Below, one piece after another: positions 14,397 through 43,670 of a DNA stretch of 64,000 nt. A program made the position numbers and the translations under genes. How positions within the stretch are numbered: position 1 is the first letter of the stretch; every line of letters starts with the position of its first letter. The DNA lies in contig CAJXGD010000002.1 in NCBI GenBank assembly GCA_913053845.1, positions 13,732 to 77,731 of the forward strand, given 5' to 3'. This DNA is from an uncultured bacterium. GTDB taxonomy: Bacteria; Bipolaricaulota; Bipolaricaulia; RBG-16-55-9; DRJF01. The notes beneath the pieces were generated by a model. It worked only from the letters and a program-made list of their open reading frames with translations. It did no database searches and was not told the origin of the DNA.

Positions 14397-14402
14397 CCGA
14401 GA

Positions 14403-15341: not shown

Positions 15342-15342
15342 C

Positions 15343-17959: not shown

Positions 17960-18079
17960 CAGATCAAGTTATTTTATAAACTTACGCCGCTTACAGCAAA
18001 TAGGGAATCGCTAGAGCGATATCTCACACTCTTATCCTCGTAAGAATCTGTTCGACTGAGCAAACAGAAAGCTAGAGAT

Positions 18080-18988
18080 TCACGAAGAACAACGTAATAA
18101 TGATTTCCCGATCAACATGCTGGTAACGACCTTATCGATGGCCCTGAGGTCATCATTGATGAAGTCCTTATGAACAGTGCTGAGCCACCCCACTGTAGTA
18201 CTTGTAAAAGACCATAATAAATCCCCATACTGCTCATTCTCAAACTGCCCGATGAAGGTTCCATCAACGAGGTCATCATTGATGTTGACCCGCAAGTGCA
18301 ATAATACTGGGGTTCTCCCAAGTGAAAGGAGTTTATTGTGTGCTTCAGCAATACTAATGAGAGTTTTATCTCCCAATAATACCAAACGCCCCCGTAACTG
18401 CTCAATGTGCTTCGCAACCTGTTTTTCTATCTCAATTGAGAGTTTCTGACCAGGGTGATGTAGCAAATCGCATAAAGGAATGGCAGCTTGATCGATCAAG
18501 GCCATAAAGGGCAACACATGCTCCATGGCAATGCCATTCAACTCGAACGCGGGTAGTGGGCCATGTTCTAACTGTAGTTCAAAGAGCTCCAAGCTGATCG
18601 CAGTGGCCAACCAAGCTGGGTAACGGACTGTCATCGGAAAGGTGTCTGGGATGATCTGTTCAACAGACATACTTTTCAATGCTCCTTTGAGCTGATTGGC
18701 CAAGTTTATCCGCTGTGCGAGCGAGTCTTGCGACACGGGCCGAGGCTGAACTTGCAATTCCGGTAGACACAAGAGAGCACATCGTAGCAAAGGGTTTGTT
18801 GAATCGCCCATACAATTTGACATGCATTGAATATAGATATCCAGTTTGCTTACATCCTCTGGAGTGTTTGTTGCAGCCATGGAGGTAAAGGGTAGCAGCA
18901 ACCCAGTAGCCAACCCAGCACCTCCCAACTTCAACAATGTCCTACGGGTCACCGTGTCCTGTTCAAGGTGCCGTCGTGGTTCATGCAT
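18080..18988 (-). CDS. Tat-exported hypothetical protein, helical with 4 Cys (C-x3-C ... C-x3-C)
   Basis: Twin-arginine signal TRRTLLKLGGAGLATGLLLPFTSMAA. Very low GC (~47%). No family recognised. Start placed at MHEPRR to avoid overlap with the upstream gene. Confidence 0.5.
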   Translation of the reverse strand: MHEPRRHLEQDTVTRRTLLKLGGAGLATGLLLPFTSMAATNTPEDVSKLDIYIQCMSNCMGDSTNPLLRCALLCLPELQVQPRPVSQDSLAQRINLANQLKGALKSMSVEQIIPDTFPMTVRYPAWLATAISLELFELQLEHGPLPAFELNGIAMEHVLPFMALIDQAAIPLCDLLHHPGQKLSIEIEKQVAKHIEQLRGRLVLLGDKTLISIAEAHNKLLSLGRTPVLLHLRVNINDDLVDGTFIGQFENEQYGDLLWSFTSTTVGWLSTVHKDFINDDLRAIDKVVTSMLIGKSLLRCSS

Positions 18989-20204
18989 TGAGTATCCTCC
19001 CATCGGTAACGTATTTTTGATGCTCTTCATGTATTTTAACTATCCAATCGGGGTTTTCCCATAGATAGGTCGTTGCCACCGCAAGGACTTCGGCCGTTTC
19101 TCTCATAACTTGATTTGCAGTTTCACTGGTGAATTCCTTGGCCTCTCCAAGGGAGTGGAATTTCCATCCTCCCTTACGGCCTATGCCGATCAACGCACTG
19201 GGGAGACGCTGCGCAATGTTGCCGAAGTCCGTAGCGAAAGGCAAAGGAAGCGGATCGAATAGTACCTCAAGTCCCACTGCTTCCATCGCATCATGCACGA
19301 CCGTCGCCAAGCGGGCATTAGGTCGTATCCCCATATACAGCGGGCCGATGCGCTCCAGCACGATAGGTATTTCAGCCGATCGACTGATGGAGTTAACAGC
19401 CTCAGTTAAGGCAATGCTGCGCGTTTCGACTTCATCTTGACTCAGCCCGAACACGAGGATCTGTAGTTGAGCGCTCAGGGGGCAACTCGCTTCCACATCT
19501 CCGTTGATCCATGCCCTTTTGACCATCACGAATTCCTGGGTGTGGTTACTTTCCAGAGTGCGAATCGCACCAAGGAGTTCATGAACGGCCCAAACAACGG
19601 ATGCTTGAAGCTCCCCTCGTTGATCAAGCTGACGGGCATGGGTCATATTGACCTGATACCGCGCCATCCAACGGGAGGCCCGCGAGACGGTATTATAGAA
19701 CTCAGGATGAGCATAGAGCACAGCATCCAAGTCATCCCAGACACCTTCTACAGCGGTTACCGCTTTGGACCCTCCCCGACACATGACCTGTGGCGCGCCG
19801 ATCTCATCCCCGGGCAAGCCCATGACAACGAGATCTCCCCTGCGGATCGCCTGTTGAGCTAAGGCAGCAACGGCTCCGATGACTGCCGCTGAGATGACGT
19901 TATGTCCACAAGAATGGTTGGGATGATAAGTCCCATCGGATTGAACCGTTGGGACCGCATCATACAACATAACCAGTCCCACACGGGGCCCACCGGCTTC
20001 TCCTGGTAGCGTGGCGCGAAAGGCCGTCTCGATTCCTGCGATGGGGCGTTCGACCTCAAAGCCCAATTCTCTCAAGCTTTCAGTGAGATAATCGGCACAC
20101 TGTATTTCCTCATAACCCAGCTCTGGATGGTTGTAAACAAACTCGTTGACTGTGGTCATCAACTTCGCCTGGGATTGAACCTGTTCCTGCAGAGCAGATG
20201 TCAT
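18981..20204 (-). CDS. M20 family amidohydrolase/metallopeptidase (AbgB or hippurate-hydrolase-like)
   Basis: HPELGYEE...GLVMLYDAVP...HSCGHNV metal-binding motifs of the M20D amidohydrolases. Confidence 0.8.
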   Translation of the reverse strand: MTSALQEQVQSQAKLMTTVNEFVYNHPELGYEEIQCADYLTESLRELGFEVERPIAGIETAFRATLPGEAGGPRVGLVMLYDAVPTVQSDGTYHPNHSCGHNVISAAVIGAVAALAQQAIRRGDLVVMGLPGDEIGAPQVMCRGGSKAVTAVEGVWDDLDAVLYAHPEFYNTVSRASRWMARYQVNMTHARQLDQRGELQASVVWAVHELLGAIRTLESNHTQEFVMVKRAWINGDVEASCPLSAQLQILVFGLSQDEVETRSIALTEAVNSISRSAEIPIVLERIGPLYMGIRPNARLATVVHDAMEAVGLEVLFDPLPLPFATDFGNIAQRLPSALIGIGRKGGWKFHSLGEAKEFTSETANQVMRETAEVLAVATTYLWENPDWIVKIHEEHQKYVTDGRILNA

Positions 20205-20220
20205 GAGGTGTTCTCTCTCC

Positions 20221-20742
20221 TTAAGGGCGTTCTTGTCTAAGTCGCCTGGATGCTATCTGAATCGAATCGAGAATCGTCCGGTAACCCGTACAACGGCACA
20301 AGTTTCCTTTCATATACCCCTTGATGTCATCGATGCTGGGATCCGGATTTTCGGCCAAGAGCGCCTTGGTAGCCAGGATCATCCCCGGGGTGCAGAAGCC
20401 ACATTGAAACCCCCGACCCTCGATAAACGCCTCCTGAATGGGATGGAGCTCTTCCCCTTGAGCGAGGCCCTCGATGGTGAGCACCTCTCGACCTCTGGCT
20501 TCATAAGCGAGAACGGTACAGGCACTGACCGGCATCCCATCTAACAGCACGGTACACACACCGCATACCTGGACGTCACACGAGAGCTTCGTTCCCATCA
20601 ACCCCAGGCGATTTCGTAGCACCTCGAGCAACGTTTCCCGTGGTTCAATCACAAGCGCATGTCGCACACCGTTGACCTCAAAATTGATGCTCACCGTTGG
20701 ATTGGACTCAGCCGTTTTGACCTTCTCATCGGTTAATGCCAT
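20221..20742 (-). CDS. molybdenum hydroxylase small subunit, (2Fe-2S)-binding (CoxS/XdhC-type)
   Basis: CDVQVCGVCTV ... QCGFCTPGMI ... NLCRCTGY: two [2Fe-2S] binding motifs of the xanthine dehydrogenase family. Confidence 0.85.
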   Translation of the reverse strand: MALTDEKVKTAESNPTVSINFEVNGVRHALVIEPRETLLEVLRNRLGLMGTKLSCDVQVCGVCTVLLDGMPVSACTVLAYEARGREVLTIEGLAQGEELHPIQEAFIEGRGFQCGFCTPGMILATKALLAENPDPSIDDIKGYMKGNLCRCTGYRTILDSIQIASRRLRQERP

Positions 20743-20771
20743 AAGTTCACCTCACACGGTACGTTTAGCTT

Positions 20772-21641
20772 TCAATCAAACCGGGTATAGGCCTGAAGGA
20801 ATGCCCGTTGAACCAAGATAGCAACTAGCTGCTTTTTGTACGCGCTCGATCCGTTGAGGTCATCACTGGGATCGGCCATCTCGGCCGCTGCTTTCCCGGC
20901 TTTATCCGATGCGATCTGAGCCTCCTCCACGCTTTTACCCCCGAGCAGAGCTTCGGCCTCGGTTGCGCGAAAAGGCTTCGAATTCACGCAGCCTACTGTC
21001 ACGATGACCTCTTTGATTCCCTCATGAGCATCATCCAAGGTTAACAAGACCGCAACGCTGACCGTAGGGCGCTCGTGGAATTGGAACCGCTGGTATCCAC
21101 CATGAGTGCTCGCTCCAGGCAGTGGAACGCGGATTTCTGTCAGCAACTCGTCAGGCTGCAATGCAGGCTCATAAGCGTCCACGAGAAACTCATCGACCGA
21201 GAGGGTCCGCTCCATGGTGGCGCTTGCCAGCTTGAACTGTGCCCCAAGCGCCAGGAACAGCGTAGCCGGGTCCGAGTGAGGTTCGGCAAAACACATGTTT
21301 CCACCAATTGTCCCCACGTTGCGAACACGAACGTTGGCAATCTCCCGCTCAACCTGAGCCAGCAACGGTAACCACCTTTGCACCACTTCAGATCGTTCCA
21401 GTTGGCGATGGGTGGTCAACGCTCCAATCTTTAGCTCGTGATCAGCTTCGCCATACTGAATCGCGTTTAGCCCCGGAACTGTTTTGATGTTGATCAAGTG
21501 ATCATAATGTAAGATACCTGACTTCATCACCAATAGCAGCTCGGTTCCTCCCGCATACAACCTGGCATTATCGCCATATTCGCTTAACAGATTCGAGGCA
21601 TCCTGGACCGAGGGCACATCATGGATCTCAAACGGCTGCAA
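20772..21641 (-). CDS. molybdenum hydroxylase medium subunit, FAD-binding (CoxM-type)
   Basis: YAGGTELLLVMK ... TIGGNMCFAEPHSDP motifs of the FAD-binding molybdopterin dehydrogenase subunit. Confidence 0.85.
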   Translation of the reverse strand: MQPFEIHDVPSVQDASNLLSEYGDNARLYAGGTELLLVMKSGILHYDHLINIKTVPGLNAIQYGEADHELKIGALTTHRQLERSEVVQRWLPLLAQVEREIANVRVRNVGTIGGNMCFAEPHSDPATLFLALGAQFKLASATMERTLSVDEFLVDAYEPALQPDELLTEIRVPLPGASTHGGYQRFQFHERPTVSVAVLLTLDDAHEGIKEVIVTVGCVNSKPFRATEAEALLGGKSVEEAQIASDKAGKAAAEMADPSDDLNGSSAYKKQLVAILVQRAFLQAYTRFD

Positions 21642-22101
21642 GGTGCTCTCCTTCTTCTAGGTGTTGTTTGATGGTGCGAGCGAACTGTGCGATGACCTCC
21701 TTGGCCTTGCGCTGGATAAGCCCATGACCCAGTGTGGCCAGTTTGCCCAAAATGTTCATCCGCGTGGTGAACGTCATTTCGGTCCCTTCAGACCCTCGGT
21801 CAGTTAGATGAAGCTCGAGCTCGATGGTGACGTTGGTACTCACCCGGTTGTCCCGACCAGATGCCACTACCACCAAGTGCTGGGGAGCTTTTCGTTCCTT
21901 GATGATGATTTCCAGGGGTAGCTTGAGCGTAAAGGGGCCGACTTTCTGCCCCACAACCGCTTTGTAGCGCTTCCCGATCTCTACCACCTGGGCAGTCTCA
22001 CATCCGGGGATGCAGGTGATCATCTGCTCAATGTCCCATAGGAAATCCCATACCCTTTGTGAAGGGGCCAGAATGGTGACTACCTCATGAAACTCCATCA
22101 C
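21628..22101 (-). CDS. CoxG-like SRPBCC family protein
   Basis: 157 aa. The MEFHEVVTILAPSQRVWDFLWDIEQMITCIPGCE pattern matches carbon monoxide dehydrogenase subunit G-like proteins. Confidence 0.7.
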   Translation of the reverse strand: MMEFHEVVTILAPSQRVWDFLWDIEQMITCIPGCETAQVVEIGKRYKAVVGQKVGPFTLKLPLEIIIKERKAPQHLVVVASGRDNRVSTNVTIELELHLTDRGSEGTEMTFTTRMNILGKLATLGHGLIQRKAKEVIAQFARTIKQHLEEGEHLAAV

Positions 22102-22127
22102 GTCTTCTCCTCAACCACGCTTGCCCT

Positions 22128-23078
22128 TCAGACATCGGCTTTCATAAGCTCTTGTCGCAACTTGAGCAAGGTGGCCACACGTGCTCGCATCAACTCGGGG
22201 ATTTCACCGGGAGCGTAATCAAACAGGCCCTTACCTGTCTTAAAACCCAAATTCTTCTGGGTTACCTTCTCCTCCACAAGCCGGCTGATGCCCGTATCTG
22301 AACATAATTCTTGGTTCAGGTAAGAGGCCACGCTATGATAGATATCCAATCCCGCGACGTCCAGAAGTGCCAAGGGGCCGATCACAGCCAGTTTCATGCC
22401 GATGCCCCAGCGTATTGTAGCGTCGATGTCTTCCATCGAAGCCACACCGGTTTCGGCCAAGTGGAGAGCCTCGCGCATGATCGCGTAAAGGATGCGGTTT
22501 TCCACGAAGCCAGGGATCTCGTGCTCGACGACGGGTACCTGGTTCATCGCTAGGGCGTAGTTCCGGGTGGTTTCTACCGTCTGATCCGCAGTGTGATCCC
22601 CTCGGATGATCTCGATCACCGGGATGATATGTGGTGGGTTGGACCAGTGCATTCCCACGATGCGTTCAGGACGGCTGCGCCCTTCCTGGAGTTTGGAAAT
22701 GGGGATGCCTGACGTGTTGCTCGACAGGATGGTGTCCGATGAGACCAACGCCTCCATCTCCGAAAAAACCTTTTGCTTGAGCTCCAGTTTTTCGGGAACC
22801 GCTTCGGATATGAAGTCCGCACTCTTCACCGCTTCAGACAGCGAAGTGGTAAAGTGAATCCGTCCCAGCGCCTGGTGGGCCGATGCTTCAGTGAGTTCTC
22901 CTGAGCTCTTCAGAACGTTACTCGCCATCTGTACGCCCTCACGTGCGCGTTGAAGGGCCTTCTCATCTATGTCCATCAGATAGACCGCCGAGCCTGAGCG
23001 AGCCATCATTAATGCTATGCCGGGGCCCATTGTACCTGAGCCGATGACCGCACTGGTGTTTGGAACTTGGTTAGGCAT
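22128..23078 (-). CDS. 3-hydroxyacyl-CoA dehydrogenase family protein (NAD-binding)
   Basis: IGSGTMGPGIALMMARSG Rossmann motif plus a C-terminal 3HCDH domain pattern. Confidence 0.8.
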   Translation of the reverse strand: MPNQVPNTSAVIGSGTMGPGIALMMARSGSAVYLMDIDEKALQRAREGVQMASNVLKSSGELTEASAHQALGRIHFTTSLSEAVKSADFISEAVPEKLELKQKVFSEMEALVSSDTILSSNTSGIPISKLQEGRSRPERIVGMHWSNPPHIIPVIEIIRGDHTADQTVETTRNYALAMNQVPVVEHEIPGFVENRILYAIMREALHLAETGVASMEDIDATIRWGIGMKLAVIGPLALLDVAGLDIYHSVASYLNQELCSDTGISRLVEEKVTQKNLGFKTGKGLFDYAPGEIPELMRARVATLLKLRQELMKADV

Positions 23079-23129
23079 GAATCCTCCTTCGATAGCTTGT
23101 ATTCGATGTATCTTCGTTCTTCCTGGGAT

Positions 23130-23957
23130 TTAGACGTAGTAATCCGGCGCTTTTTTATAGTGATGGTAATCTTCGAGATCGTGTGGATACAGCAGCGTCG
23201 GCTTGCGTACGGCGATAAGTTGTTTTAAACGCTGAAACGAACACAACATCGCCAGTGGATCATGATGCAGGCCCATTAGATGATCATGCTCCAAATTCTC
23301 ACGACACCACGCTGCGTCCGCCGTATATAGCACTGGCCCGGAATCCAACTCGACCAACAGGGAGTAATGCCCTACGGTGTGTCCTGGGGTGAAGATCAAC
23401 TGGATACCTGGTAGGACTTCATAGTCCCCTTCGATCAAGTGGTAATCGCGATCGGGGAAATCGAACAACCCTCGGTTGTAACCCAGTCGCTCAAAGGTTT
23501 CTGGGGAGAATGCCTCCCGCAGCTCTTGTTTATGGACGATGTTTTCGGCCTGAGAGAACAGATGATTTGCGCCACAGTGGTCAAAGTGCAGGTGACTGTT
23601 CACCAGTATGTCAATGTCTCCAGGCTTAACGCCGATTTTGCCCAATTGGACAGGAATCGTTTGCTCCGAGCTCTGCTCCGGTTCTTCAAATGGCAAGTCC
23701 TTACGAGCTTGTTCCAGATCAAAGCCGGTGTCAAACAGGACTTTGCCATCTGGGTGGTCGATGAACACCGAGAAAACCGGGATACGTTTGGTGCTCCCCA
23801 TCCCGTGGTTCCAGGTGATCAGCGACTGATCCATCAGCAGGTCGCCGCCATCGAGCAGGTACACTTTGATTGACATAGAGCTCCTTTCAGATGCAGGGTT
23901 AATGCATACTGATGCCACCACCAATGTTGATGGCAGCTCCATTGATGAATTCGGCAT
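23130..23957 (-). CDS. MBL-fold metallo-hydrolase (lactonase-like)
   Basis: HLHFDHCGAN ... HTVGH ... D motifs of metallo-beta-lactamase-fold hydrolases. Confidence 0.75.
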   Translation of the reverse strand: MPNSSMELPSTLVVASVCINPASERSSMSIKVYLLDGGDLLMDQSLITWNHGMGSTKRIPVFSVFIDHPDGKVLFDTGFDLEQARKDLPFEEPEQSSEQTIPVQLGKIGVKPGDIDILVNSHLHFDHCGANHLFSQAENIVHKQELREAFSPETFERLGYNRGLFDFPDRDYHLIEGDYEVLPGIQLIFTPGHTVGHYSLLVELDSGPVLYTADAAWCRENLEHDHLMGLHHDPLAMLCSFQRLKQLIAVRKPTLLYPHDLEDYHHYKKAPDYYV

Positions 23958-24642
23958 CCTTCGAGCACAGGAATGTCACTAACCCTGTGACATCATCCGG
24001 CTTTTCAAACTTGCCTATCGGCGTGTGATTCAGGATGTAATCGAAGGTCTCTTCGGTGAACGCTTGACGTGTGCCCGGCGTGTCCAACAAGGTGGGAGAG
24101 ATCCAAGCAGTCTTGATGCCTAATGGGCCAAGCTCTGTCGCTAAGGCGCGAGTTAGTCCTAGCAAACCTGCTTTACTCGTCAGGTAGTGGGCCAAGCCAG
24201 GGGTGCCCATCCATACCGTGTCCGAACCGACGTTGATGATACGTCCGTCCTGTTGAGTTTTCATCGCGGGCAATACCGCCTTGATACACAAAAATGCCCC
24301 ATCGAGGTTCACGCGCATCCGCTGTTGCCAATCTTCCAATGTGATCTCTTCGAAGGGTTTCCCGGTGTAAATCCCAGCGTTATTGATCAATACATCGATG
24401 CGACCGAATGCCTGCCGGGTATCTTCGGCCATGCGGCAGGTATCCGCCTCCTGAGTAACGTCCGTTTTGACATACTTGGCCACGCCAATTTGGTTTAGTT
24501 CAGATTCAAGCGCCGTCCCATCTCGCACATCGGCCAAGACCACCTTGGCTCCTTCTACAACCAACCGTCGGGCCATAGCGGAGCCCAACTCACCTACACC
24601 ACCGGTCACGATGATCACACGATCTTTCACGCTGATAGGCAT
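23899..24642 (-). CDS. SDR family oxidoreductase
   Basis: TGGVGELGSAMARRL cofactor motif, NNAG, and a YxxxK catalytic tetrad region. Confidence 0.85.
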   Translation of the reverse strand: MPISVKDRVIIVTGGVGELGSAMARRLVVEGAKVVLADVRDGTALESELNQIGVAKYVKTDVTQEADTCRMAEDTRQAFGRIDVLINNAGIYTGKPFEEITLEDWQQRMRVNLDGAFLCIKAVLPAMKTQQDGRIINVGSDTVWMGTPGLAHYLTSKAGLLGLTRALATELGPLGIKTAWISPTLLDTPGTRQAFTEETFDYILNHTPIGKFEKPDDVTGLVTFLCSKDAEFINGAAINIGGGISMH

Positions 24643-24653
24643 GGTACTCCTTT

Positions 24654-25838
24654 CTAAGACCGAGAGTTAACGAACTCTTGCCAATCTTTCAAATCCGCCA
24701 TGGCTGCACCTACACCTGCGCCAAACTCCACCGGCCAGCCCAAATCGGCCAAGCTACGTTCGAGTACGCCCAACTGCGCAGCCAAGTAAGTGGGATGAGC
24801 GACCTTCCCCATGTGTCCTAATCGGAACAGTCGCCCGGCTAATTCACCATAGCCACCGGAGATCATCACGCCATAACAGGCTCTCAGATGGCCGCGTAAC
24901 TGTTCGTCCGTGATCCCCTCAGGGACTGTGACCGCTGTGACTGCTGTGCCGTTGATCTCCTCTCGGGCAGCCCACAGCTTCAGACCCAAGGCTTTGACCC
25001 CTTCTCGACATGCGTGGGAGATTTGTTGATGTCGAGCCACATAATTTTCTAGCCCCTCCTCCAGAACTTGAGACAGCACTGATTCTAAAGCGTAAATCTC
25101 ACCCACTGAAGGGGTATAGGGGAACCGATGGTTTTCAATCCACGCGTCCTTCCAATCGAGAATCGATAGATACGATCCACGCAGTGGATTTTTGCGCGTT
25201 TCCATCGCTTTCCAAGCCTCGGGGCTGACCGCCATGAGGGCCAACCCAGGCGTGCCTCCTAGACATTTTTGGGGGCCCGCTACCGCCACGTCAATAGCCC
25301 ATTCTTCTGGGCTGAATACTGCTCCACCTAACCCTGAAACCGTGTCCATCACGGTGATCACACCGAACTCTTTTGCGATATTCCCGATGTCTTTGACAGG
25401 GTTGATCGTGCCTGAGGGGGTCTCTGAATGAACTACGGAGAGCAACTTGATGGAGGGATCTTGCTGCAATGCTGACCGGACGTCCTCAGGGTCGATCGCC
25501 TCATTATAGGGGACGGCAAGCTCGACGGCCACACCACCATATTTTTCGATAAACAGTTCGTACCATTTGCCAAAAACCCCAGAGACCAGGTTCAAAACTT
25601 TGTCTCCCGGAGAGATCAATGAGGCCGCGGTAGCTTCGAGACCTAAAATGGCCTCTCCCTGCATAATGACGACGTCATACTGGGTGCGGTAAACCTGTTT
25701 GAGAAGCGCCAAAGTCTGTTCAAAGAATTCGATAAAAGCAGGATCATAGTGGTAAAGCATCGGGCGAGCCAGGTCACGTAACGTGCGCTCGCTGACCGCT
25801 ACAGGTCCTGCAGCAAAATTGACGATCGGCCAATCCAT
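24654..25838 (-). CDS. class V aminotransferase (alanine-glyoxylate/serine-pyruvate aminotransferase-like)
   Basis: AGXT-family fold pattern including SGLGG...PQKCLGGTPG (Lys-PLP region). Confidence 0.8.
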   Translation of the reverse strand: MDWPIVNFAAGPVAVSERTLRDLARPMLYHYDPAFIEFFEQTLALLKQVYRTQYDVVIMQGEAILGLEATAASLISPGDKVLNLVSGVFGKWYELFIEKYGGVAVELAVPYNEAIDPEDVRSALQQDPSIKLLSVVHSETPSGTINPVKDIGNIAKEFGVITVMDTVSGLGGAVFSPEEWAIDVAVAGPQKCLGGTPGLALMAVSPEAWKAMETRKNPLRGSYLSILDWKDAWIENHRFPYTPSVGEIYALESVLSQVLEEGLENYVARHQQISHACREGVKALGLKLWAAREEINGTAVTAVTVPEGITDEQLRGHLRACYGVMISGGYGELAGRLFRLGHMGKVAHPTYLAAQLGVLERSLADLGWPVEFGAGVGAAMADLKDWQEFVNSRS

Positions 25839-25869
25839 GTTACCTCCTTACTTAAAAGAGAGATTGCCC

Positions 25870-25912
25870 TGTTCCTCTGGGAGGGCATGTGCTCCTCCCA
25901 GAGGAACAGGCT
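25870..25912 (-). terminator. strong hairpin, probable terminator of the ABC-transporter operon
   Basis: Perfect 17-bp inverted repeat CCTGTTCCTCTGGGAGG-gcatgtgct-CCTCCCAGAGGAACAGG followed on the minus strand by TCTCTTTT. Confidence 0.6.
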
Positions 25913-25921
25913 GATTCCGTC

Positions 25922-26998: not shown

Positions 26999-27130
26999 GA
27001 CAACTCCTTCCTATTTTTTTGCTTCCCTATTGCTCTCAACCATATTCGCTTGTTGCACGCCCACATCAGCCTGGTGCATCGCTTGATGATCACCTCCTCT
27101 TGGGGCTCTATTTGCGCCATTGTACAGCCT

Positions 27131-33120: not shown

Positions 33121-33169
33121 CGCATCCTCCTTTGAACACTCGGGGCCACGCTGAACTCATGCACGAGGT

Positions 33170-35270: not shown

Positions 35271-35271
35271 T

Positions 35272-36291: not shown

Positions 36292-36301
36292 CTCGTTATA
36301 G

Positions 36302-36997
36302 TCATTTGGATTGGGTCAGAGTCCCATGATTGTGAGAGGTCCATGCATCGATGGGCTGTTCGATAGCTTCCCTCTCGATAGCTTCCCTCGGCACTCGAAT
36401 GTGCTCCGCCATCAAGTGTGCGGCCTCATCGGGCTCCGAGCGCTTCACCGCGTTCAAGATCGCCTCGTGCTCACTCTTAGAGTTGTCAATTCCACGGCGC
36501 AGCATGAGAGATTTCAACCGGTATCGTTTCAAGTGGTCCATCAACTGGGCATACATATCTTGGAGGAATTGGTTCCCCGACCGCTCGACGAATAAAGCGT
36601 GGAACTGAGCGTTCAACCGGAAATATTCATCGATGTTTTCGTTCTGTCCTTCAACTCCCATACGCTTTTGCAAACGGTGGAGCGTTTCCAAATCATCCTG
36701 GGAGATCTGCGGTACAGCAAGTCTCACTGCTAACGCTTCTAACGCTTCACGCACTTGAACGAACTCTAGAAACTCTTCCGGGCTAAGCACCGCGACGATG
36801 GCACCGCGACGAGGATAAATAGTCACTAGCCCTTCCACAGCAAGCGCTTGGAGCGCTTCGCGAATAGGTGCTCTGCTAATGTGCAAACGTTCCGCCAGGC
36901 TGACTTCACGCAGACGCTCCCCCGGGGTGAGCCGATGGGATAAGATTTCTTCCTTCAGGTGCTCGTATACCTGTTTGCTTAATGTACGTTTCTCCAT
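36302..36997 (-). CDS. GntR family transcriptional regulator (FadR/FCD subfamily)
   Basis: N-terminal wHTH (LSKQVYEHLKEEILSHRLTPGERL.E..LAERLHISRAPIREAL) plus a C-terminal FCD domain. Start chosen at MEKRTLSK. Confidence 0.8.
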   Translation of the reverse strand: MEKRTLSKQVYEHLKEEILSHRLTPGERLREVSLAERLHISRAPIREALQALAVEGLVTIYPRRGAIVAVLSPEEFLEFVQVREALEALAVRLAVPQISQDDLETLHRLQKRMGVEGQNENIDEYFRLNAQFHALFVERSGNQFLQDMYAQLMDHLKRYRLKSLMLRRGIDNSKSEHEAILNAVKRSEPDEAAHLMAEHIRVPREAIEREAIEQPIDAWTSHNHGTLTQSK

Positions 36998-37012
36998 GGT
37001 ATTGAGTTCTTC

Positions 37013-37028
37013 CCTTAGATTGTCGACA
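37013..37028. promoter_or_regulatory. candidate autoregulatory GntR operator
   Basis: CTTAGATTGTCGACA lies 16-31 nt upstream of the gntR start and is identical to the motif at 27131. Confidence 0.4.
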
Positions 37029-37271
37029 ACATGCAGTATACCAAAACGTCCTCCCAATGTCAAGGGCGAGAGTTGGTGCGCCAAGAGATCAGCTACAGTC
37101 GCAGACAGCTCCCTGGGGAACTGTGGCATCGGGAGTTGGTCGCGGCTTATTAGCCTGGGTCTGCTCTCTGCTCCTCGTCAAGCTCCTTGCCCGCTAGAAG
37201 CCGCGCTTACCGCTGTGATAGGGGCCATACGCCCCTACAGTCGGAGGCGACATGAGGAATAAGATTTAGCA

Positions 37272-38753
37272 TTAGAACTTTCTCGTCCATTCTTTGGGCC
37301 AGCGCTCGATGACCACTTTGCTTTGGGTGAAGAACTCCACGGCGTCGCGACCTTGCCCGTGCAAGACACCGAAGAAACTCTCCTTCCAGCCGCTGAAGGG
37401 GAAAAAGGCCATCGGGGCCGCCACGCCGATGTTGATGCCGATGTTCCCCGCTTGCGCCTCGTAACGGAATTTGCGCGCCGCTGCACCGCTATTAGTGAAT
37501 AAGCAGGCCATGTTGCCATACTTCGCGTTGTTGACGAAAGCGATCGCGTCGTCCACGCTCTTCACGTGCATGATACCCAAGACCGGGCCGAAGAGCTCAG
37601 TGCTGGCAATCTTGCCCTCGGGTGGGATGCCATCTAAGACGGTGGGGCGGATAAAGTTGCCTTGTTCGTAGCCACGAATGGATGCCTTTCTCCCATCCAC
37701 GACCACTTTGCCACCTTCGTCTACTCCCTGTTGGATCAGCCCCTCGATGCGGGCTTTGCTCTGTGGGGTGATCACCGGCCCCATCTCGACGCCGTCATCG
37801 AGGCCATAGCCTACCACGCGATCCCTGGCTGCATCTGCAAGGGCTGCACTGAACCACTCGCGGGCCTCACCCACGGTGATGGCCAGCGAGCCGGCCAAAC
37901 AGCGCTGCCCAGCGTTCCCGAAGAAGCTGTCAGCGGCGATGCGGGTGGTCATCTCCATCTCCGCATCCGGTAAGATGATCAGCGGGTTCTTGGCTCCTCC
38001 ATTCGCCACGACACGCTTTCCATTGGCCGCCGCACGGCTGTAAATATGCTTGGCCACAACCGTGGAGCCGACGAAGCTGATCACCTGAATCAGGGGATGA
38101 TCGAGGATGGCATTGACGGTGTCGGGACCACCGTTCACCAGATTCACTACGCCACTCGGGAAACCAACCTCTTCTTCGAGCAGTTGGAAAATCCTTTGCA
38201 TCGTCATGGGAGTTCGCTCGGAAGGTTTAACGAGGTAGGTGTTCCCGGTCGCCAGCGCATAAGGCATATACCAGAAAGGAACCAAAACGGGGAAATTAAA
38301 GGGTACGATGGTGGTCGCCACGCCCACCGGCTGTCGAATCATGAATTCGTCAATGCCACGGGCGATGTCCTCCGAGTTGTATCCCTGCATCAAGATGGGG
38401 ATGCCACAAGCTACCTCGACGTTCTCAATTGCCCGACGCATCTCTCCTCGCGATTCATCCAGGGTCTTGCCATTTTCCATCGTGATGAGACGCGAGAGTT
38501 CCTCGAAGTGTTCCTCGAGTAAGTTCTTCAACTTGAAGAGATACTGGACGCGCTCAACGGCCGGGGTATGTCGCCAGTCGTCGAAGGCGGCCGCGGCAGT
38601 CTGCGCGGCCTGGTCCACCTCCGCTGCCGGGGAGAGTGGCACTCGCGTCAGCAACTCTCCGGTGGCGGGGTTGTTCACCTTCAGGGACTCCTGAGCAGTC
38701 GAACGCTGCCACTGGCCATTGATGTAGTTAAGCAGTTGTTCGTCGTTTACCAT
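37272..38753 (-). CDS. mmsA: CoA-acylating methylmalonate/malonate-semialdehyde dehydrogenase
   Basis: [34 protein letters not shown] matches the MmsA hallmark (ITPFNFPAMIPLWMFP...KPSE). Catalytic Cys region GQRC. AAAGGAGGA ribosome-binding site before the ATG at 38753. Confidence 0.85.
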
Positions 38754-38793
38754 CGGTCCTCCTTTAAGGCTATCTGACACGACATACTATCAC

Positions 38794-39795
38794 CTAAGAA
38801 CTGAACTCAGGGATGATGCTCCTCCCGTACTCCTCCACGATGTGCTCCTCCTCGCCACACATCAGATAGATGTTAAACTGCGACACCCCGATCTCTGCCA
38901 ATTCCTTGAGCCTGGCGATGTGAGCGTCCACCGGGCCATTGAGGCCAAAGGAATCAATGATCTCATCGGAGATGAAGCCCAGATGGCCGGCGTCCTTGTC
39001 GGCATGTCGTAGGTAGTCATATCCCTTTCGACCTTCGATGGAGTCGGCCAGGTGTTTGGGAATAACCTCCCCTGACTTACCATATTTCTCTACCAGGTCG
39101 GCCACATGGTTGCCTACCATGGCCGGGAACCAGCGAATCTGCGCCCGCCCTTCGTCCAGATCATCGGAGAGCCATACCGGCGCTGCGGACATCACGCTTA
39201 GCTTGTTAGGATCTTTCCCAGTTGCTTTGGCAGCCTCCTTCGCCTGACCTGAGAACCATTTGACCAACCAGGGGTCGGCCAACTGGATGATCAAACCGTC
39301 GCCATGTTCCCCGGCGACCCGAAGCGCCTTGGGGCCATAAGCGGCAATCCAGATGGGCACATTCTCCGCAGCCCAGGGGAACTTTACCTCCACGCCATCG
39401 AGTTTGACGACTTTGCCCTGCGTCAGCGTGCGCACCGTCTCCACGCATTCGGCCAGGTGCTGCAACGTCATCGGTTTACGATGGAGCACGCGCCGCGAAC
39501 TGTCCCCTCGCCCGATGCCCATGGTCACCCGTCCACCGCTCAGTCGGCTCATCGCGGCGAACAGGCTGGCCGTGACCGTCCAATCGCGCACGCCGGGGTT
39601 GGTCACACAGGTGCCAAACCGTAGCTTCTCCGTGTGAGCTATGCAGTAGGACATCGTGGCATAGCATTCTTGCCAGAGCACGTGGCTGTCGAAGAACCAA
39701 GCATGCTTGAACCCCGCCGCCTCCGCCTGCCGGCACAGCGCCACCGTCCGCTGGGGTTCCATGTCACCTTTGAAGGTAATCGCAAATTCCATAAA
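38794..39795 (-). CDS. LLM-class flavin/F420-dependent oxidoreductase
   Basis: TIM-barrel LLM pattern (GFKHAWFFDSH ... GGRVTMGIGRGD). Start chosen at MEFAITFKG. Confidence 0.7.
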   Translation of the reverse strand, partial: FMEFAITFKGDMEPQRTVALCRQAEAAGFKHAWFFDSHVLWQECYATMSYCIAHTEKLRFGTCVTNPGVRDWTVTASLFAAMSRLSGGRVTMGIGRGDSSRRVLHRKPMTLQHLAECVETVRTLTQGKVVKLDGVEVKFPWAAENVPIWIAAYGPKALRVAGEHGDGLIIQLADPWLVKWFSGQAKEAAKATGKDPNKLSVMSAAPVWLSDDLDEGRAQIRWFPAMVGNHVADLVEKYGKSGEVIPKHLADSIEGRKGYDYLRHADKDAGHLGFISDEIIDSFGLNGPVDAHIARLKELAEIGVSQFNIYLMCGEEEHIVEEYGRSIIPEFSS

Positions 39796-39823
39796 TCCCC
39801 CCCTTAATGACTTAAATATTTCT

Positions 39824-41131
39824 TTAATCCACCAACGTATCCACCCAGCTGAGCGCCTGATCCAAGCCGCGCAGGCCCTCGTCAATCTGCGCCTCGCTGA
39901 TGATCAGCGGCGGGGCGATGATCAAGGTATTGATCATGCCGACCATGTAGACGCCGCCGGCCAAGGCCTTGCCTGTGGCCTGCGCCAGCACGCTGGGGCC
40001 ACCCTTGACCTTGACGCCGTACTCGTCGAACGGTTCCTTGGTTTTGCGATCCTTGACCAGCTCCACGCCGCAGAACAGGCCTACGCCGCGCACCTCACCC
40101 ACACAGGGATGTCGCGCCTGGAGCTGGCGTAGCTTGTCGAGTAGATAGTTGCCCTTCCGCTTGGCCGCCGGGATCAGCTGCTCATCTTCGTAGATCTGGA
40201 TCGTCTCCAGCGCCGCGGCCACGGTCATGGGGTGGCCGGAGTAGGTGTGCCCGAGATTAAAGAAATTATCATTGAAGTGCGCTGCGATCTCCTCATTGAC
40301 AATCGTGCCTGCCAGCGGCAAATAGGCCGCAGTGATGCCCTTCGCCACGGCCATGATGTCGGGCACCACCTCCCATAGGTCGCAGGCGAACCACTCGCCG
40401 CAGCGTCCGAAGCCGCTCATCACCTCATCGGCGATGAGCAAGGCGCCATGCTTGTGGCAGATCCTAAGCAATTCGGGCAGGTACTCCGGCGGTGGGACCA
40501 GGATGCCGTTCGAGCCCACCACCGGCTCGACGATCACCGCGGCCACGGTGTCGCCTTCGAGGGTGAGCATCTCGTCAATGTAGTCCAACGTCTTCATCAC
40601 GCTGCCGAAGACGGTGCGATACTCATAGGGATCGGGAGCTTTGAGGATGCCAGGGATGGCCGGTTCGGTGGCCCAGCGCCGCGGGTCGCCGGTGAGCGCG
40701 ATCGAGCCGCAGGTCGAACCATGGTAGGAGCGATAGCGTGAGATGATCTTCTGCTTCCCGGTGAACCAGCGTGCGATCATCAGTGCTGCCTCGATGGCCT
40801 CAGTTCCACCGGGGGAGAAGAACGTTTTACACAGGTCACCCGGCGTGATCTCGGCCAGCTTCTTGCCCAACTTGGCGCGGGCTTCGCAGGTAAAGCCGGG
40901 CGCGATATAGGCAAACTTGCTTGCTTGCGCTTGAATCGCGCGGTTGAGGCGTTCGTTTTTATGACCCAACTGCGAGCACATCAATTGGGAAGAGAAGTCC
41001 AGATAGCGCCGGCCCTCGGCGTCGGTGAAGTACACCCCTTCGGCAGCGACAATTTGCTTGGGATGAACGTTCTTCTGGAACGACCAGGTGCCAAACACGT
41101 ACTGTTGGTCCATCTGCTCGATCTCGTTCAC
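39824..41131 (-). CDS. class III (omega) aminotransferase, beta-alanine/pyruvate-type
   Basis: Aspartate aminotransferase family fold III. DEVMSGFGRCGEWFA PLP-lysine region. Confidence 0.85.
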   Translation of the reverse strand: MNEIEQMDQQYVFGTWSFQKNVHPKQIVAAEGVYFTDAEGRRYLDFSSQLMCSQLGHKNERLNRAIQAQASKFAYIAPGFTCEARAKLGKKLAEITPGDLCKTFFSPGGTEAIEAALMIARWFTGKQKIISRYRSYHGSTCGSIALTGDPRRWATEPAIPGILKAPDPYEYRTVFGSVMKTLDYIDEMLTLEGDTVAAVIVEPVVGSNGILVPPPEYLPELLRICHKHGALLIADEVMSGFGRCGEWFACDLWEVVPDIMAVAKGITAAYLPLAGTIVNEEIAAHFNDNFFNLGHTYSGHPMTVAAALETIQIYEDEQLIPAAKRKGNYLLDKLRQLQARHPCVGEVRGVGLFCGVELVKDRKTKEPFDEYGVKVKGGPSVLAQATGKALAGGVYMVGMINTLIIAPPLIISEAQIDEGLRGLDQALSWVDTLVD

Positions 41132-42531
41132 GCCAGCCCTCCTTGGGGTGCGGCATTGAGCAGTTCGCTCGAGATGGTCCGCTCGACGAATTTGCCGCGG
41201 CCACGCTCAGCCTTCAGTTCCCCCTCTTCCACGATGACCTCGCCGCGCGAGATGGTGATCACCGGCCAGCCGGTCAGCTCCCGCCCCTCGTAGAGGCTGT
41301 AGTCCGAGTTGCTGTGCATGGCTTCAGCCGTGACCGTCCTCTTGAGCTGGGGATCGACGATCACGATGTCGGCATCCTTGCCCACCTCGAGCGAGCCCTT
41401 GTGCTGCAAGCCGTGAATCTTGGCGGTGTTTTCGCTGAGCAGTTGCGCCAGACGGCTCAGCGAGATGCGGCCTTGGTTGACCCCTTCGCTGAACATATAG
41501 GGCAGCAGCGTCTCCACACCCATGCCGCCGTTGGGCACCTTGGAGAACAGCTCCCGGCCCAGCAGCTTCTGCTCGGTGCTGAAGGGGCAGTGGTCCGTGC
41601 CCATACAGGGAATGTCCCCCCTCTCGATACCGCTCCACAGCGCCTCGTTGTCCTTCTTGAGACGCATTGGTGGAGTCATGATGTAGTTCAGGCCGTCCTC
41701 TTGCGCGTAAACGTCTTTGGTGAATTCTAGATATTGCGGACAGGTCTCCATCATGATCGGATAGCCCTGGTGCTGAGCCTGACGCAGATGATTCAAGCCT
41801 TCTTCGGTGCTCAGATGCACCACGTAGAGCGCTGAGCCGGCCGCCTTGGCCAGCTCAATCGAGGTGGCAATCGAAGTGCCTTCCACGAAGTTGGGCCGGC
41901 TGTCGTAATGCTGCATCCAGGAGACCTTGCCCCGGGCCTCCTGCTCTTGCATCAGCTGCTCCACCACATCAGCGTTCTCAGCATGAATCAACACCAGGCC
42001 GTTGTGCCGGTGCGTCTCCTGCAGCATCTTGAACAAGAAGCCGTCGCCCACGTGAAAACCCTCGCGCTTGTAGGGCAAAAAGAGCTTGAAGGTCGGCATG
42101 CCCAGCTCGATTAGCTTTTGGACGTAATCCAAGTTCTGTTGAGTCTCAGTAGTAAAGCTGGGATGAAAGCTGTAATCCACCACCACTTTTGGCTCAGCCA
42201 GCTCGCGGCGCGCCTGGATGTGATCCAGAATGTCTACGTCCTTACCATGAATGGCAAAGTCAATAACTGAAGTGACCCCGCCGAAGGCAGCAGCCACCGT
42301 GCCTTGGTAGAAGTCATCGGCCGAGATGGTGCCCTGAAACGGCAGCTCCAGGTGCACGTGAGGGTCAATCGCGCCCGGCAGCACCACTTTACCGGTCGCA
42401 TCGATGGTGCGTTTGCCTTCAAGCTTGTCCTCACTAAGGATAGCAATCTCTTCGCCACGCACGCCTAGCGAGCAGTTCCGTACCCTACCGGGCGTGACCA
42501 CCTTCCCGTTCGCAATCACCAGATCGTACAT
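41128..42531 (-). CDS. dihydropyrimidinase/D-hydantoinase (cyclic amidohydrolase)
   Basis: GAIDPHVHLELPF ... carboxylated-Lys region ... amidohydrolase-superfamily metal ligands. 467 aa, typical of the family. Confidence 0.85.
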   Translation of the reverse strand: MYDLVIANGKVVTPGRVRNCSLGVRGEEIAILSEDKLEGKRTIDATGKVVLPGAIDPHVHLELPFQGTISADDFYQGTVAAAFGGVTSVIDFAIHGKDVDILDHIQARRELAEPKVVVDYSFHPSFTTETQQNLDYVQKLIELGMPTFKLFLPYKREGFHVGDGFLFKMLQETHRHNGLVLIHAENADVVEQLMQEQEARGKVSWMQHYDSRPNFVEGTSIATSIELAKAAGSALYVVHLSTEEGLNHLRQAQHQGYPIMMETCPQYLEFTKDVYAQEDGLNYIMTPPMRLKKDNEALWSGIERGDIPCMGTDHCPFSTEQKLLGRELFSKVPNGGMGVETLLPYMFSEGVNQGRISLSRLAQLLSENTAKIHGLQHKGSLEVGKDADIVIVDPQLKRTVTAEAMHSNSDYSLYEGRELTGWPVITISRGEVIVEEGELKAERGRGKFVERTISSELLNAAPQGGLA

Positions 42532-42555
42532 GAGCCTCTCCTTTCTTCTTTTGTC

Positions 42556-43425
42556 CTACAGTTCGACGAGCTGGCTGTAGAGGTCCGGGCGGCGGTCACG
42601 GAAGAACTGCCACACCTTACGCACCTCTGCGATTTGATCCAGATCCAGATCTGCTACCAATACCTCGTCTTCGTCCTCACCGGCTTGGGCGACGATCTGG
42701 CCGCGAGGATCACAGAAATAACTGGAACCGTACCACTTGCCGATGTCCCATGGTTGTTCATGACCCACCCGATTGATCGCGCCCACGAAGTACTGGTTGG
42801 CCACAGCGTCTGCGGGTTGTTCCAACTTCCAGAGGTATTGGCTCAAGCCAGCCACGGTAGCCGAAGGATTAAACACGATCTCTGCTCCACCCAGGCCCAG
42901 AGCACGCGCGCCTTCGGGGAAATGGCGATCGTAGCAGATATAAACTCCCACTTTACCGAACTGGGTTTGGAATACGGGATAGCCCAGATTCCCAGGCCGA
43001 AAGTAGAACTTTTCCCAAAACCCTGGCTTGCAGTGAGGGATATGGGTCTTGCGGTACTTACCGAGGTAGGTGCCATCCGCATCTATCACCGCAGCGGTGT
43101 TGTAGTAGACGCCCGTCATGTCTTCCTCATAGACCGGAACGATCATTACCATTCCATGTTTCTTGGCCACTTCTTGCATAAGCCGAGTGGTTTCCCCCTC
43201 AGGGACCTTCTCGGTAAGGTCGTACCAGCGGGTACTCTGCTCCGCGCAGAAGTATGGTCCGTAGAACAATTCCTGCAAGCACAGCATCTGGACGCCCTGT
43301 TGCGCAGCCTGCTCGATGAGCTTGAGGTGCTTCTCGATCATGTTGCGCTTGATAACCTCGTTGGATTCGGTTACCGGTGTGTTGAGAGAGGCTTGGATGA
43401 GCCCTCCCTTGACAACTCTGGCCAT
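42556..43425 (-). CDS. carbon-nitrogen hydrolase (nitrilase superfamily): N-carbamoyl amidohydrolase/beta-ureidopropionase-like
   Basis: Catalytic triad context E(LQELF)...GKYRKTHIP...VYICYDRHFPE. Resembles D-carbamoylase and beta-alanine synthase. Confidence 0.8.
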   Translation of the reverse strand: MARVVKGGLIQASLNTPVTESNEVIKRNMIEKHLKLIEQAAQQGVQMLCLQELFYGPYFCAEQSTRWYDLTEKVPEGETTRLMQEVAKKHGMVMIVPVYEEDMTGVYYNTAAVIDADGTYLGKYRKTHIPHCKPGFWEKFYFRPGNLGYPVFQTQFGKVGVYICYDRHFPEGARALGLGGAEIVFNPSATVAGLSQYLWKLEQPADAVANQYFVGAINRVGHEQPWDIGKWYGSSYFCDPRGQIVAQAGEDEDEVLVADLDLDQIAEVRKVWQFFRDRRPDLYSQLVEL

Positions 43426-43670
43426 AATGCCTCCTTGCTATAGCCCTTAGCGGTCAACATGCGCTTTTCGCTTGGGCTTTCTCAGCTATGGGGTTAGCGC
43501 AGTATACAACTAAATTTTTCCTGGAGTCAAGGGCAGGTTGTGCTGGCACCTCTCCAGTTTGAGGATCATAGCCTTCTTCCCAGCTTAGCGGTTACCCTAT
43601 TGATCTTGCCGGGCAAACGTGCTAGACTAAACCTGTGCCAGGTAAGCGGTAGCAACGGGGGTGATCGGCC

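Follow-up and report, generated by a model that had tools for sequence, protein, structure and literature searches.

The locus examined here raised three questions: whether a long run of genes of unusually low guanine plus cytosine (GC) content is a foreign catabolic island, where such an island would end and what it would degrade. The run lies in a 64,000-nt stretch (the window; positions 13,732 to 77,731 of contig CAJXGD010000002.1, assembly GCA_913053845.1) from an uncultured bacterium assigned to the Bipolaricaulota, next to an F420 biosynthesis operon that begins with cofG. The first-pass annotation of the window had described a catabolic island of about 25 kb at this place. Our analysis pointed to a smaller element, a low-GC block of about 19.3 kb (17,960-37,271) with 19 genes, all of them on the minus strand. 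With a probability of roughly 70%, this block entered the genome by horizontal transfer from a donor with a GC content of about 53%, and its genes serve to take up and degrade vitamin B6 vitamers under the control of a regulator.

The extent of the block was determined by binary-GC change-point analysis. The left change point was at 17,893, where GC fell from 0.622 to 0.527, and the right one was at 37,063, where it rose from 0.538 to 0.587. Both composition edges were steps in intergenic DNA, on the left an AT-rich interval between the last block gene and cofG (17,960-18,079) and on the right the interval between the genes for MmsA and a GntR regulator (37,130-37,271). The block had a GC content of 0.534 (0.468-0.564 per kb in a 1-kb profile; 0.535 for the 19 genes pooled), compared with 0.64 in the left flank, 0.59 in the right flank and 0.58 in the segment from 37.2 to 43.4 kb. 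The drop reported in the first pass was real and sharp, although it extended over 17.96-37.27 kb and not over 25 kb, and the value of 65% given for both flanks fitted the left one only, the right flank being at 59%. GC at third codon positions (GC3) was 0.51-0.66 in the block genes and 0.68-0.84 in 31 of the 33 other genes of the window (Mann-Whitney p = 2.9e-8). The mean codon-usage distance to the host reference was 0.141 for block genes and 0.087-0.095 for every other gene group.

The oligonucleotide comparison proposed with the first pass was less uniform in its outcome. Composition was clearly not even, and the block was strongly separated from the left flank (dinucleotide delta* 114, as against 55 between the two flanks; TETRA correlation 0.43, as against 0.70 between the flanks). 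The separation from the right flank was only moderate (delta* 66, TETRA r 0.55), and 2 of the 33 host genes had a GC3 within the range of the block. Both of these observations speak against a foreign origin. The two host genes were those for a dCTP deaminase (54,994-55,635, plus strand, GC3 0.64) and for an MtrA-like/pterin-binding DUF4346 protein (59,749-60,873, plus strand, GC3 0.58). The right flank was compositionally patchy.

GC at codon positions 1, 2 and 3 of the block genes was 59.9/40.7/59.7%. The Lawrence-Ochman regression gives 59.7/41.1/58.1% for a genome of 53.4% GC and 63-66/43-44/68-76% for a genome of 59-64% GC. The block fits the codon-position equilibrium of a genome of about 53% GC and has therefore undergone essentially no amelioration.

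The remainder of the 25 kb behaved differently. GC had been said to grade back to the flanking level between 37.2 and 43.4 kb. Instead, a step was found at 37.06-37.27 kb, and the genes at 37,272-43,425 had a host-type GC3 of 0.68-0.81 (pooled 0.74), which was equal to that of the right-flank genes (Mann-Whitney p = 0.82) and differed from that of the block (p = 5e-5). Their codon-usage distance to the host was 0.095. The total GC of 0.58 in this segment is explained by the level of the right flank, which is 0.59 as a whole. A single acquired unit of 25 kb from 18.0 to 43.4 kb, including hydantoinase, carbamoylase, aminotransferase and MmsA and partly ameliorated at its right end, would agree with the contiguous genes on the same strand, with a GC below the 0.64 of the left flank and with the small delta* between the segment at 37.3-43.4 kb and the block (42). 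It is at odds with the host-like GC3 and codon usage, with a change that is stepwise and shows no gradient, and with the lack of pyrimidine-operon genes in every one of about 85 other loci carrying the cassette. We therefore regard it as very unlikely. Horizontal acquisition was the best reading for 17.96-37.27 kb, and the segment from 37.3 to 43.4 kb is native. Gene orientation gave no boundary. Every gene of 18,080-43,425 is on the minus strand, as had been noted, and so are the five F420 genes; the minus-strand run spans all genes from 12,805 to 43,425 and, as it includes the F420 operon, does not delimit the block. Because transcription proceeds from right to left, cofG follows the block and the block is thus upstream of it, whereas the first description had placed it downstream of the F420 operon.

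To what substrate the block is devoted was judged from its enzymes. Degradation pathway I for vitamin B6 is known from Mesorhizobium loti MAFF303099 and Pseudomonas sp. MA-1. It consists of pyridoxamine-pyruvate aminotransferase (PPAT), pyridoxal 4-dehydrogenase, 4-pyridoxolactonase, 4-pyridoxate dehydrogenase, 5-formyl-3-hydroxy-2-methylpyridine-4-carboxylate (FHMPC) 5-dehydrogenase, 3-hydroxy-2-methylpyridine-4,5-dicarboxylate (HMPDC) decarboxylase, 2-methyl-3-hydroxypyridine-5-carboxylate (MHPC) oxygenase and 2-(acetamidomethylene)succinate (AAMS) hydrolase. Three proteins of the block were closest to M. loti enzymes. The class-V aminotransferase encoded at 24,654-25,838 matched the PPAT model NF046070 with 435 bits (cutoff 600; next family 232), M. 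loti PPAT (2z9u) was its top PDB match (335 bits; PucG 185), and its homologues are annotated by JGI as pyridoxamine--pyruvate transaminase. A lactonase with metallo-beta-lactamase fold (23,130-23,957) reached 302 bits with NF047925 (cutoff 325) and 222 bits with 4-pyridoxolactonase 3aj3, its top PDB match, compared with 138 for AiiA. The FHMPC dehydrogenase-like protein (22,128-23,078), which has a 3-hydroxyacyl-CoA dehydrogenase fold, scored 379.7 bits with NF042925 (cutoff 500; next family 233) and 295 bits with M. loti FHMPC dehydrogenase 4om8, again the top structure (next 169).

Two further proteins fill family slots of pathway I. A short-chain dehydrogenase/reductase (SDR; 23,899-24,642) is a candidate pyridoxal 4-dehydrogenase, a weak assignment resting on 206 bits with NF047923 (cutoff 325), and a class II aldolase-fold protein (33,170-33,880; PF00596) may be an aromatic carboxylate decarboxylase similar in type to HMPDC decarboxylase. 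In addition, Pfam domains identified an ABC importer (25,922-30,886) composed of a Bmp-family binding protein (25,922-26,998), two permeases (27,285-28,214 and 28,215-29,255) and a double ATPase (29,252-30,886). It had been taken for a nucleoside-type importer. All four components were best matched by the 'putative B6 ABC transporter' models NF047927-30 (324, 289, 305 and 572 bits; cutoffs 400, 465, 400 and 670). A regulator with GntR and FCD domains (36,302-37,129) is the first gene of the cassette, and a promoter-like TTGACA-17-TATACT is present at this gene (37,063-37,035, minus strand). With PPAT, lactonase, FHMPC dehydrogenase and importer all pointing to vitamin B6, the description as a generic catabolic island was too broad, and the annotation is corrected to a vitamin B6 utilisation cluster from a nucleoside/hydantoin cluster.

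Several findings argue against this assignment. Every score with a B6 equivalog model was under the curated NCBI cutoff, and the proteins are therefore to be seen as relatives and not as certified orthologues. The SDR matched the FabG model with 200 bits, barely below its score with NF047923. For the aldolase-fold protein, NCBIfam matches were to aldolase and to 3,4-dihydroxyphthalate decarboxylase, unnamed 'aldolases' were the top PDB structures with 96 bits, and the known HMPDC decarboxylase Mlr6791 (2z7b) was only sixth with 70 bits. No glucose-methanol-choline (GMC) oxidoreductase domain, as expected for a GMC-type 4-pyridoxate dehydrogenase, was detected in any open reading frame (ORF) of the window, and neither an FAD_binding_3 nor an alpha/beta-hydrolase domain, expected for MHPC oxygenase and AAMS hydrolase, was detected in the block.

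Thus, the block differs from pathway I of M. loti by the absence of the GMC-type 4-pyridoxate dehydrogenase/pyridoxine 4-oxidase, the FAD-dependent MHPC oxygenase and AAMS hydrolase. It instead has five other components. The first is a luciferase-like (LLM) oxidoreductase, probably F420-dependent (35,272-36,291; PF00296). The second is a NicX-fold protein, a candidate Fe(II) ring-cleaving dioxygenase (34,251-35,270; PF26233), which is followed by a Cupin_2 protein (33,877-34,263; PF07883, 4e-17) that with 128 aa was below the 150-aa threshold of the ORF list. The fourth is a molybdenum (Mo) hydroxylase, whose large molybdopterin subunit (30,856-33,120; Ald_Xan_dh_C, MoCoBD_1, MoCoBD_2) is encoded nine genes apart from its partners, the small 2Fe-2S subunit (20,221-20,742; Fer2_2, Fer2; best NCBIfam matches to small subunits of the xanthine dehydrogenase (XDH) family) and the medium FAD subunit (20,772-21,641; FAD_binding_5, CO_deh_flav_C), with a CoxG/SRPBCC accessory protein (21,628-22,101; PF06240, 4e-20) encoded beside them. 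The last is an M20-family amidohydrolase (18,981-20,204; PF01546, 2e-10; TIGR01891 90 bits, under cutoff).

Whether these genes belong together was assessed in other genomes. A Ca. Bipolaricaulia-labelled metagenome-assembled genome (MAG; L090/L091) shared 13 genes with the block, in unchanged order, with 59-82% amino acid identity at a GC of 0.58. In this genome, the IS200/IS605 genes tnpA (Y1 transposase) and tnpB (1-711 of L090) lie directly upstream of the NicX-like gene, where the window has its GntR and LLM genes. A 296-kb contig of 59% GC (L099) carried the order GntR-LLM-NicX-cupin-aldolase-FAD-FeS-MoL-ABC-Bmp, MoL being the large Mo subunit. The neighboring M20 gene and a gene without Pfam match on that contig were considered as homologues of the two genes at the end of the block that encode the M20 amidohydrolase and a signal-peptide protein, and were rejected (tblastn E 1e-5). 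On a contig of 49% GC (L098), MoL-ABC-Bmp-PPAT-SDR were present with 73-79% identity. Scanning of soil, marine and subsurface metagenomes with the NicX-like profile yielded 80 further loci with a GC of 0.47-0.72, in which each gene was counted only where the flank sufficed. In 55 of 56 loci, the LLM gene immediately preceded the NicX-like gene, and the cupin gene was downstream of the latter in 67 of 70. The aldolase-fold gene accompanied it in 42 of 49 loci and the Mo large subunit in all 18; of the 23 loci with a length of 10 kb or more, 19 also contained PPAT, FHMPC dehydrogenase or lactonase. None of these loci had cof or pyrimidine genes beside the cassette.

Judged by this conserved neighborhood, the block is one functional unit. 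Our main argument is that the association between the B6 upper-pathway genes and the LLM, NicX, cupin, decarboxylase and Mo genes is conserved across organisms, so that all of them should act on one substrate family. Environmental metagenomes commonly contain the cassette, in strongly conserved form, but three of the eight textbook B6-degradation enzymes are missing from it, which points to an undescribed lower pathway. Its architecture is widespread and apparently uncharacterised, and represents a variant of the known B6 pathway. Simpler or different versions were also seen. In Anaerolineae, only ABC importer, Bmp protein and PPAT were found together. The anaerobe-style loci L096/L097 (GCA_027400015.1) encode a B6-type importer, PPAT, lactonase and an FHMPC dehydrogenase-like protein, and two tungsten-type aldehyde:ferredoxin oxidoreductases (AFORs), ferredoxins and a cupin replace the Mo-hydroxylase and the NicX-like protein.

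The same data bear on the possibility that the acquired cassette is directed at some other N-heterocycle, for instance a purine, a nucleoside or a pyridine resembling nicotinate or picolinate, and that the B6-like enzymes are paralogues. The equivalog scores under cutoff and the three missing canonical enzymes would suit this idea, Bmp-family binding proteins usually bind nucleosides, and pyridine and nicotinate pathways are typically marked by a Mo-hydroxylase, a NicX fold and a cupin. Yet four enzymes and four importer components independently had B6-specific models or structures as best matches, with margins of 80-200 bits for PPAT, lactonase and FHMPC dehydrogenase, and the B6-like genes accompanied the core of NicX-like, LLM and Mo genes in 19 of the 23 long loci. 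As B6 intermediates are substituted nicotinates, both kinds of signal are expected together. A substrate other than vitamin B6 consequently appears unlikely to us, if still worth keeping in mind, and vitamin B6 is retained as the substrate.

We then considered how the block came to its present position. Horizontal acquisition of 17.96-37.27 kb is well supported by the unameliorated composition, the patchy distribution and the insertion sequence (IS) adjoining one copy of the cassette. It falls short of proof, since the searches yielded no relative with an empty site. Several findings count against it. MmsA next to cofG was not encountered among the relatives, and the only close relative, a sister lineage (L088), carries the block at the same site. 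A protein search with cofG gave this one relative at 95% identity and then sequences at about 72% without synteny. No integrase or transposase domain was present in any ORF of the window, and no convincing direct repeat was seen. Synonymous divergence between window and L088 was 0.087 in 10 block genes and 0.169 in 4 F420 genes. This difference is compatible with later spread of the block by recombination and so counts in favor of acquisition. It is weakened by being partly driven by cofD (0.36) and cofH, and the value for cofG, 0.115, resembles that of the block.

The opposite view would be a native, vertically inherited block whose low GC results from local selection or mutation, for example through expression level or amino acid content. 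It could draw on the block at the same site in the sister lineage, on the lack of mobility genes, tRNA and repeats, on the Bipolaricaulia-labelled MAG, which possibly belongs to the same broad clade and has the same cassette, and on the heterogeneous composition of the right flank itself. What it does not explain is that all three codon positions shift jointly onto the equilibrium line of 53% GC and that the edges are steps in intergenic DNA. Homologous cassettes elsewhere, moreover, take the GC of their carriers (0.47-0.72) and are not linked to cof or pyrimidine genes. Genome contigs were also searched with CofG; among the matches listed, identity was at most 73% and the species of the window was not included. 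None of the 80 cofG loci among these matches, mostly from Dehalococcoidia MAGs, had block genes of at least 40% identity within 10 kb upstream of cofG. A native origin is thus rather improbable, and acquisition from outside is preferred.

The mechanism of acquisition left few traces. In agreement with the first pass, domain scans, a tRNA search and a repeat search gave no integrase, tRNA or flanking repeat; neither tRNA genes nor Rfam matches were present in the whole window. The sole repeat common to the junction regions was the 12-mer AGCCGCGCTTAC at 17,795 and 37,199. It was rejected as an att-like site and is consistent with chance, which would give about 0.045 matches of this kind; the left copy, 155 nt inside cofG and in DNA of host composition, also counts against this role. 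A duplicated cofG 5' end in L088 (9,819-9,973) was rejected as an insertion scar as well. The two copies, on either side of a run of N, are 100% identical, and the duplication was therefore recognized as a scaffolding artefact mimicking a target duplication. With its atypical GC and codon usage, sharp edges, accessory catabolic operon and patchy distribution, the block is similar to a classical genomic island. Classical islands are linked to tRNA genes and have an integrase and direct repeats, whereas the block has none of these and lies between two operons that share its strand. It looks more like an operon insertion, either old or mediated by recombination, than like an integrative element. 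As an event of horizontal transfer, the insertion of an accessory catabolic operon into a genome is ordinary.

Since metagenome data were used, a chimera arising in assembly or binning, in which a low-GC fragment of another organism was joined into the contig, had to be considered. Three further assemblies of this species (VAOU01, DRJF01 and Logan SRR7787810) have contigs that end or start at about 33,625-33,725 with an overlap of about 100 nt. This could be taken as a sign of such an error, but it suggests a site that varies between strains or a branch in the assembly graph. The break falls in the aldolase-fold gene within the low-GC block, at neither junction, and both the 91-kb contig of the window and the contig of the sister lineage continue through it. 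Both junctions were found in GCA_006240775.1, GCA_011052375.1 and the Logan assembly of SRR7787810. The left junction was also found in the sister lineage from a different sample, with a 95% identical cofG, and a 31.6-kb contig of that lineage holds cofG, PPAT and the NicX-like gene together. A chimera is accordingly extremely improbable.

For the lower pathway, the NicX-like protein was analyzed first. The nic pathway of Pseudomonas putida KT2440 comprises the hydroxylase NicAB, NicC, the 2,5-dihydroxypyridine dioxygenase NicX, NicD, NicF and NicE. The assignment of the block protein to PF26233 (NicX) was a precomputed Pfam assignment, and phmmer gave no match in the PDB. An AlphaFold (AF2) model built with 32 homologues had a mean pLDDT of 91. 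Its top Foldseek matches were three NicX chains (7cup/7cn3) with TM-scores of 0.76-0.77 over the query and 0.74-0.75 over the target (E about 1e-19) at a sequence identity of 15-16%. The longer M29 aminopeptidases ranked below NicX (TM-score over target 0.54-0.61). With the family profile, NicX was likewise the first PDB match (E 9e-5).

In NicX, Fe(II) is bound by His265, Ser302, His318 and Asp320, and the substrate is held by His105, Glu177 and His189 (PMC7910607). The family of the block protein has an invariant H312-x-D314, which corresponds to H318-x-D320 of NicX, and an invariant Glu180, one position off Glu177. His189 aligns with Leu, and the alignment assigned no position to Ser302. 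Near His265, the family appears to have an invariant Glu268, as do M29 peptidases (PMC7910607), which is unfavorable to a dioxygenase. According to the model, the protein is NicX-like in fold and family, and dioxygenase chemistry is plausible for it. Because of the apparent Glu near the position of His265, it may also be a hydrolase, for example an M29-type amidase. The block is thus similar to the nic pathway in pairing a candidate Mo-dependent ring hydroxylase with a NicX-fold protein (TM-score 0.77 to 7cup) in which the HxD metal motif is kept and a Glu is found near that of the NicX substrate site (Glu177; PMC7910607). It differs in its hydroxylase, which is of the three-subunit CoxSML type and not NicAB, and in the metal and substrate ligands, the equivalent of His265 probably being Glu and His189 not being kept. 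No domains matching NicC monooxygenase, NicD deformylase, NicF amidase or NicE isomerase were present in the block, which has the M20 hydrolase, the cupin and the LLM in their stead.

The best NCBIfam matches of the block LLM were F420-dependent LLM families, with 128 bits for TIGR03619 (cutoff 167), and its PDB relatives were F420-dependent glucose-6-phosphate dehydrogenase (62 bits) and hydroxymycolate dehydrogenase. Its best relatives thus include F420-dependent alcohol and hemiacetal dehydrogenases, and the protein would be a candidate 4-pyridoxate (alcohol) dehydrogenase. The similarity from which F420 dependence is deduced was below threshold, a weakness of this proposal. An alternative function would be that of a RutA-like ring-opening oxygenase.

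The Mo-hydroxylase consists of XDH-family large, FAD and 2Fe-2S subunits in a CoxSML-type arrangement together with CoxG. PDB matches of the large subunit were 4-hydroxybenzoyl-CoA reductase (301 bits), 6-hydroxypseudooxynicotine dehydrogenase (248), quinoline 2-oxidoreductase (245), nicotinate dehydrogenase (220) and, at 177 bits or less, aldehyde oxidoreductases. Alternatively, the enzyme might be an aldehyde oxidase that converts pyridoxal to 4-pyridoxate as in mammals; in the anaerobe-style loci, its place is taken by the tungsten AFORs. The aldehyde oxidase function was ranked second because the step is covered by SDR and lactonase and because the PDB neighbors are ring hydroxylases. The M20 amidohydrolase is a candidate deacylase or amidase for the ring-cleavage product.

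These assignments can be combined into a route. By homology, the GntR/FCD regulator and the Bmp-type 'B6' ABC importer would provide regulated uptake. PPAT would convert pyridoxamine to pyridoxal, the SDR would oxidize pyridoxal to 4-pyridoxolactone, and the lactonase would hydrolyze this compound to 4-pyridoxate. The LLM may substitute for the missing GMC enzyme and, as an alcohol dehydrogenase that reduces F420, form FHMPC from 4-pyridoxate, and FHMPC dehydrogenase would then produce the 4,5-dicarboxylate. The aldolase-fold enzyme is predicted to decarboxylate this intermediate, and the cupin possibly removes the remaining carboxylate. On chemical grounds, the Mo-hydroxylase would hydroxylate C6, the only free alpha-carbon of the substituted nicotinate. 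Decarboxylation and hydroxylation together would yield 2-methyl-3,6-dihydroxypyridine, a methylated 2,5-dihydroxypyridine and as such a NicX type of substrate. The NicX-fold protein could open the ring to an N-acetyl-maleamate-type product, which the M20 hydrolase would deacylate.

Nothing on a B6 pathway with a NicX protein or a Mo-hydroxylase was found in the searchable literature. We tentatively propose, with more doubt than confidence, that the cassette encodes a widespread route of B6 mineralisation, not described experimentally, in which an F420-dependent LLM, a Mo-hydroxylase with decarboxylases and a distant NicX-type dioxygenase replace the classical flavoprotein steps, and that block and pyrimidine operon, both linked to F420, add up to about 30 kb devoted to the catabolism of N-heterocycles. 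If the B6 assignment is right, scavenging and probably mineralisation of a vitamin are within the abilities of a bacterium whose candidate phylum is known from metagenomes only.

The pyrimidine operon just mentioned occupies the native segment to the right of the block (37,272-43,425, minus strand), to which GC3, codon usage and NCBIfam assigned it. It encodes MmsA (37,272-38,780; TIGR01722 above cutoff), a Mer-like F420-type LLM (38,794-39,885; TIGR03842 448 bits, cutoff 295), a class-III aminotransferase (39,824-41,131; domain scan), a dihydropyrimidinase (41,128-42,531; TIGR02033 above cutoff) and a beta-ureidopropionase-like CN-hydrolase (42,556-43,425; best PDB matches the beta-ureidopropionases 2vhh and 6ftq). 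These are the enzymes listed at first as hydantoinase, carbamoylase, aminotransferase and MmsA of the island. They belong to a reductive pyrimidine operon of native composition, and the coherent gene set first described, of which Mo-hydroxylase, importer and GntR regulator do lie in the block, mixed two unrelated modules. Reductive pyrimidine catabolism proceeds through PydA, PydB and PydC, a beta-alanine aminotransferase and MmsA. The operon agrees with it in dihydropyrimidinase, CN-hydrolase, class-III aminotransferase and MmsA and differs in having the TIGR03842 LLM instead of a dihydropyrimidine dehydrogenase.

The closest PDB relative of this LLM was F420-dependent Mer. From its sequence and position, the protein is a candidate F420H2-dependent uracil/thymine reductase; nothing relevant to an F420-dependent pyrimidine reductase was found in the searchable literature. 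Two of the three LLM genes in the 30-kb stretch are thus located where a canonical flavoprotein is missing, namely 4-pyridoxate dehydrogenase and dihydropyrimidine dehydrogenase. Such positions give substrate hypotheses for the large and mostly uncharacterised F420-dependent LLM families.

To the left of the block, the F420 biosynthesis operon (12,805-17,959, minus strand) contains five genes, cofG-cofH-cofD-cofC and an LLM gene. CofG, CofH, CofD and CofC matched TIGR03550, TIGR03551, TIGR01819 and TIGR03552, respectively, all above the NCBIfam cutoffs. The order cofG-cofH-cofD-cofC-LLM is kept in many Dehalococcoidia MAGs (L002-L055) at 41-73% identity, despite the Fraserbacteria label of the host, and an older transfer may have brought in this operon too. 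Without the block, the pyrimidine operon would directly abut cofG and the F420 operon.

The last gene of the block (18,080-19,030, minus strand; start according to the gene caller about 18,988, 302 aa) encodes a protein that carries a Tat-type signal peptide (RRTLLKLGGAGLA) and matched none of the Pfam and NCBIfam families. The gene had the lowest GC of all block genes (0.468), and the N-terminal stretch of the protein is Cys-rich. Its family consisted of only 11 cluster representatives in 1.84 billion proteins, all with RRxFLK-type N termini, and the gene was absent from the other cassette loci examined.

The genes of the flanks were ordinary, encoding MutS2, an ABC-F protein, CoaBC, SecDF, a sugar ABC system and glycosyltransferases. 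Proteins identical to those of the window are labelled 'Candidatus Fraserbacteria bacterium' at NCBI (HED04273.1). MutS2 is separated from the F420 operon by DNA of 57-58% GC without longer ORFs, which contains a small antitoxin-like ORF with a PemK/MazF toxin gene and a Uma2-family endonuclease-like gene (11,013-11,653, plus strand, and 12,214-12,657, minus strand).

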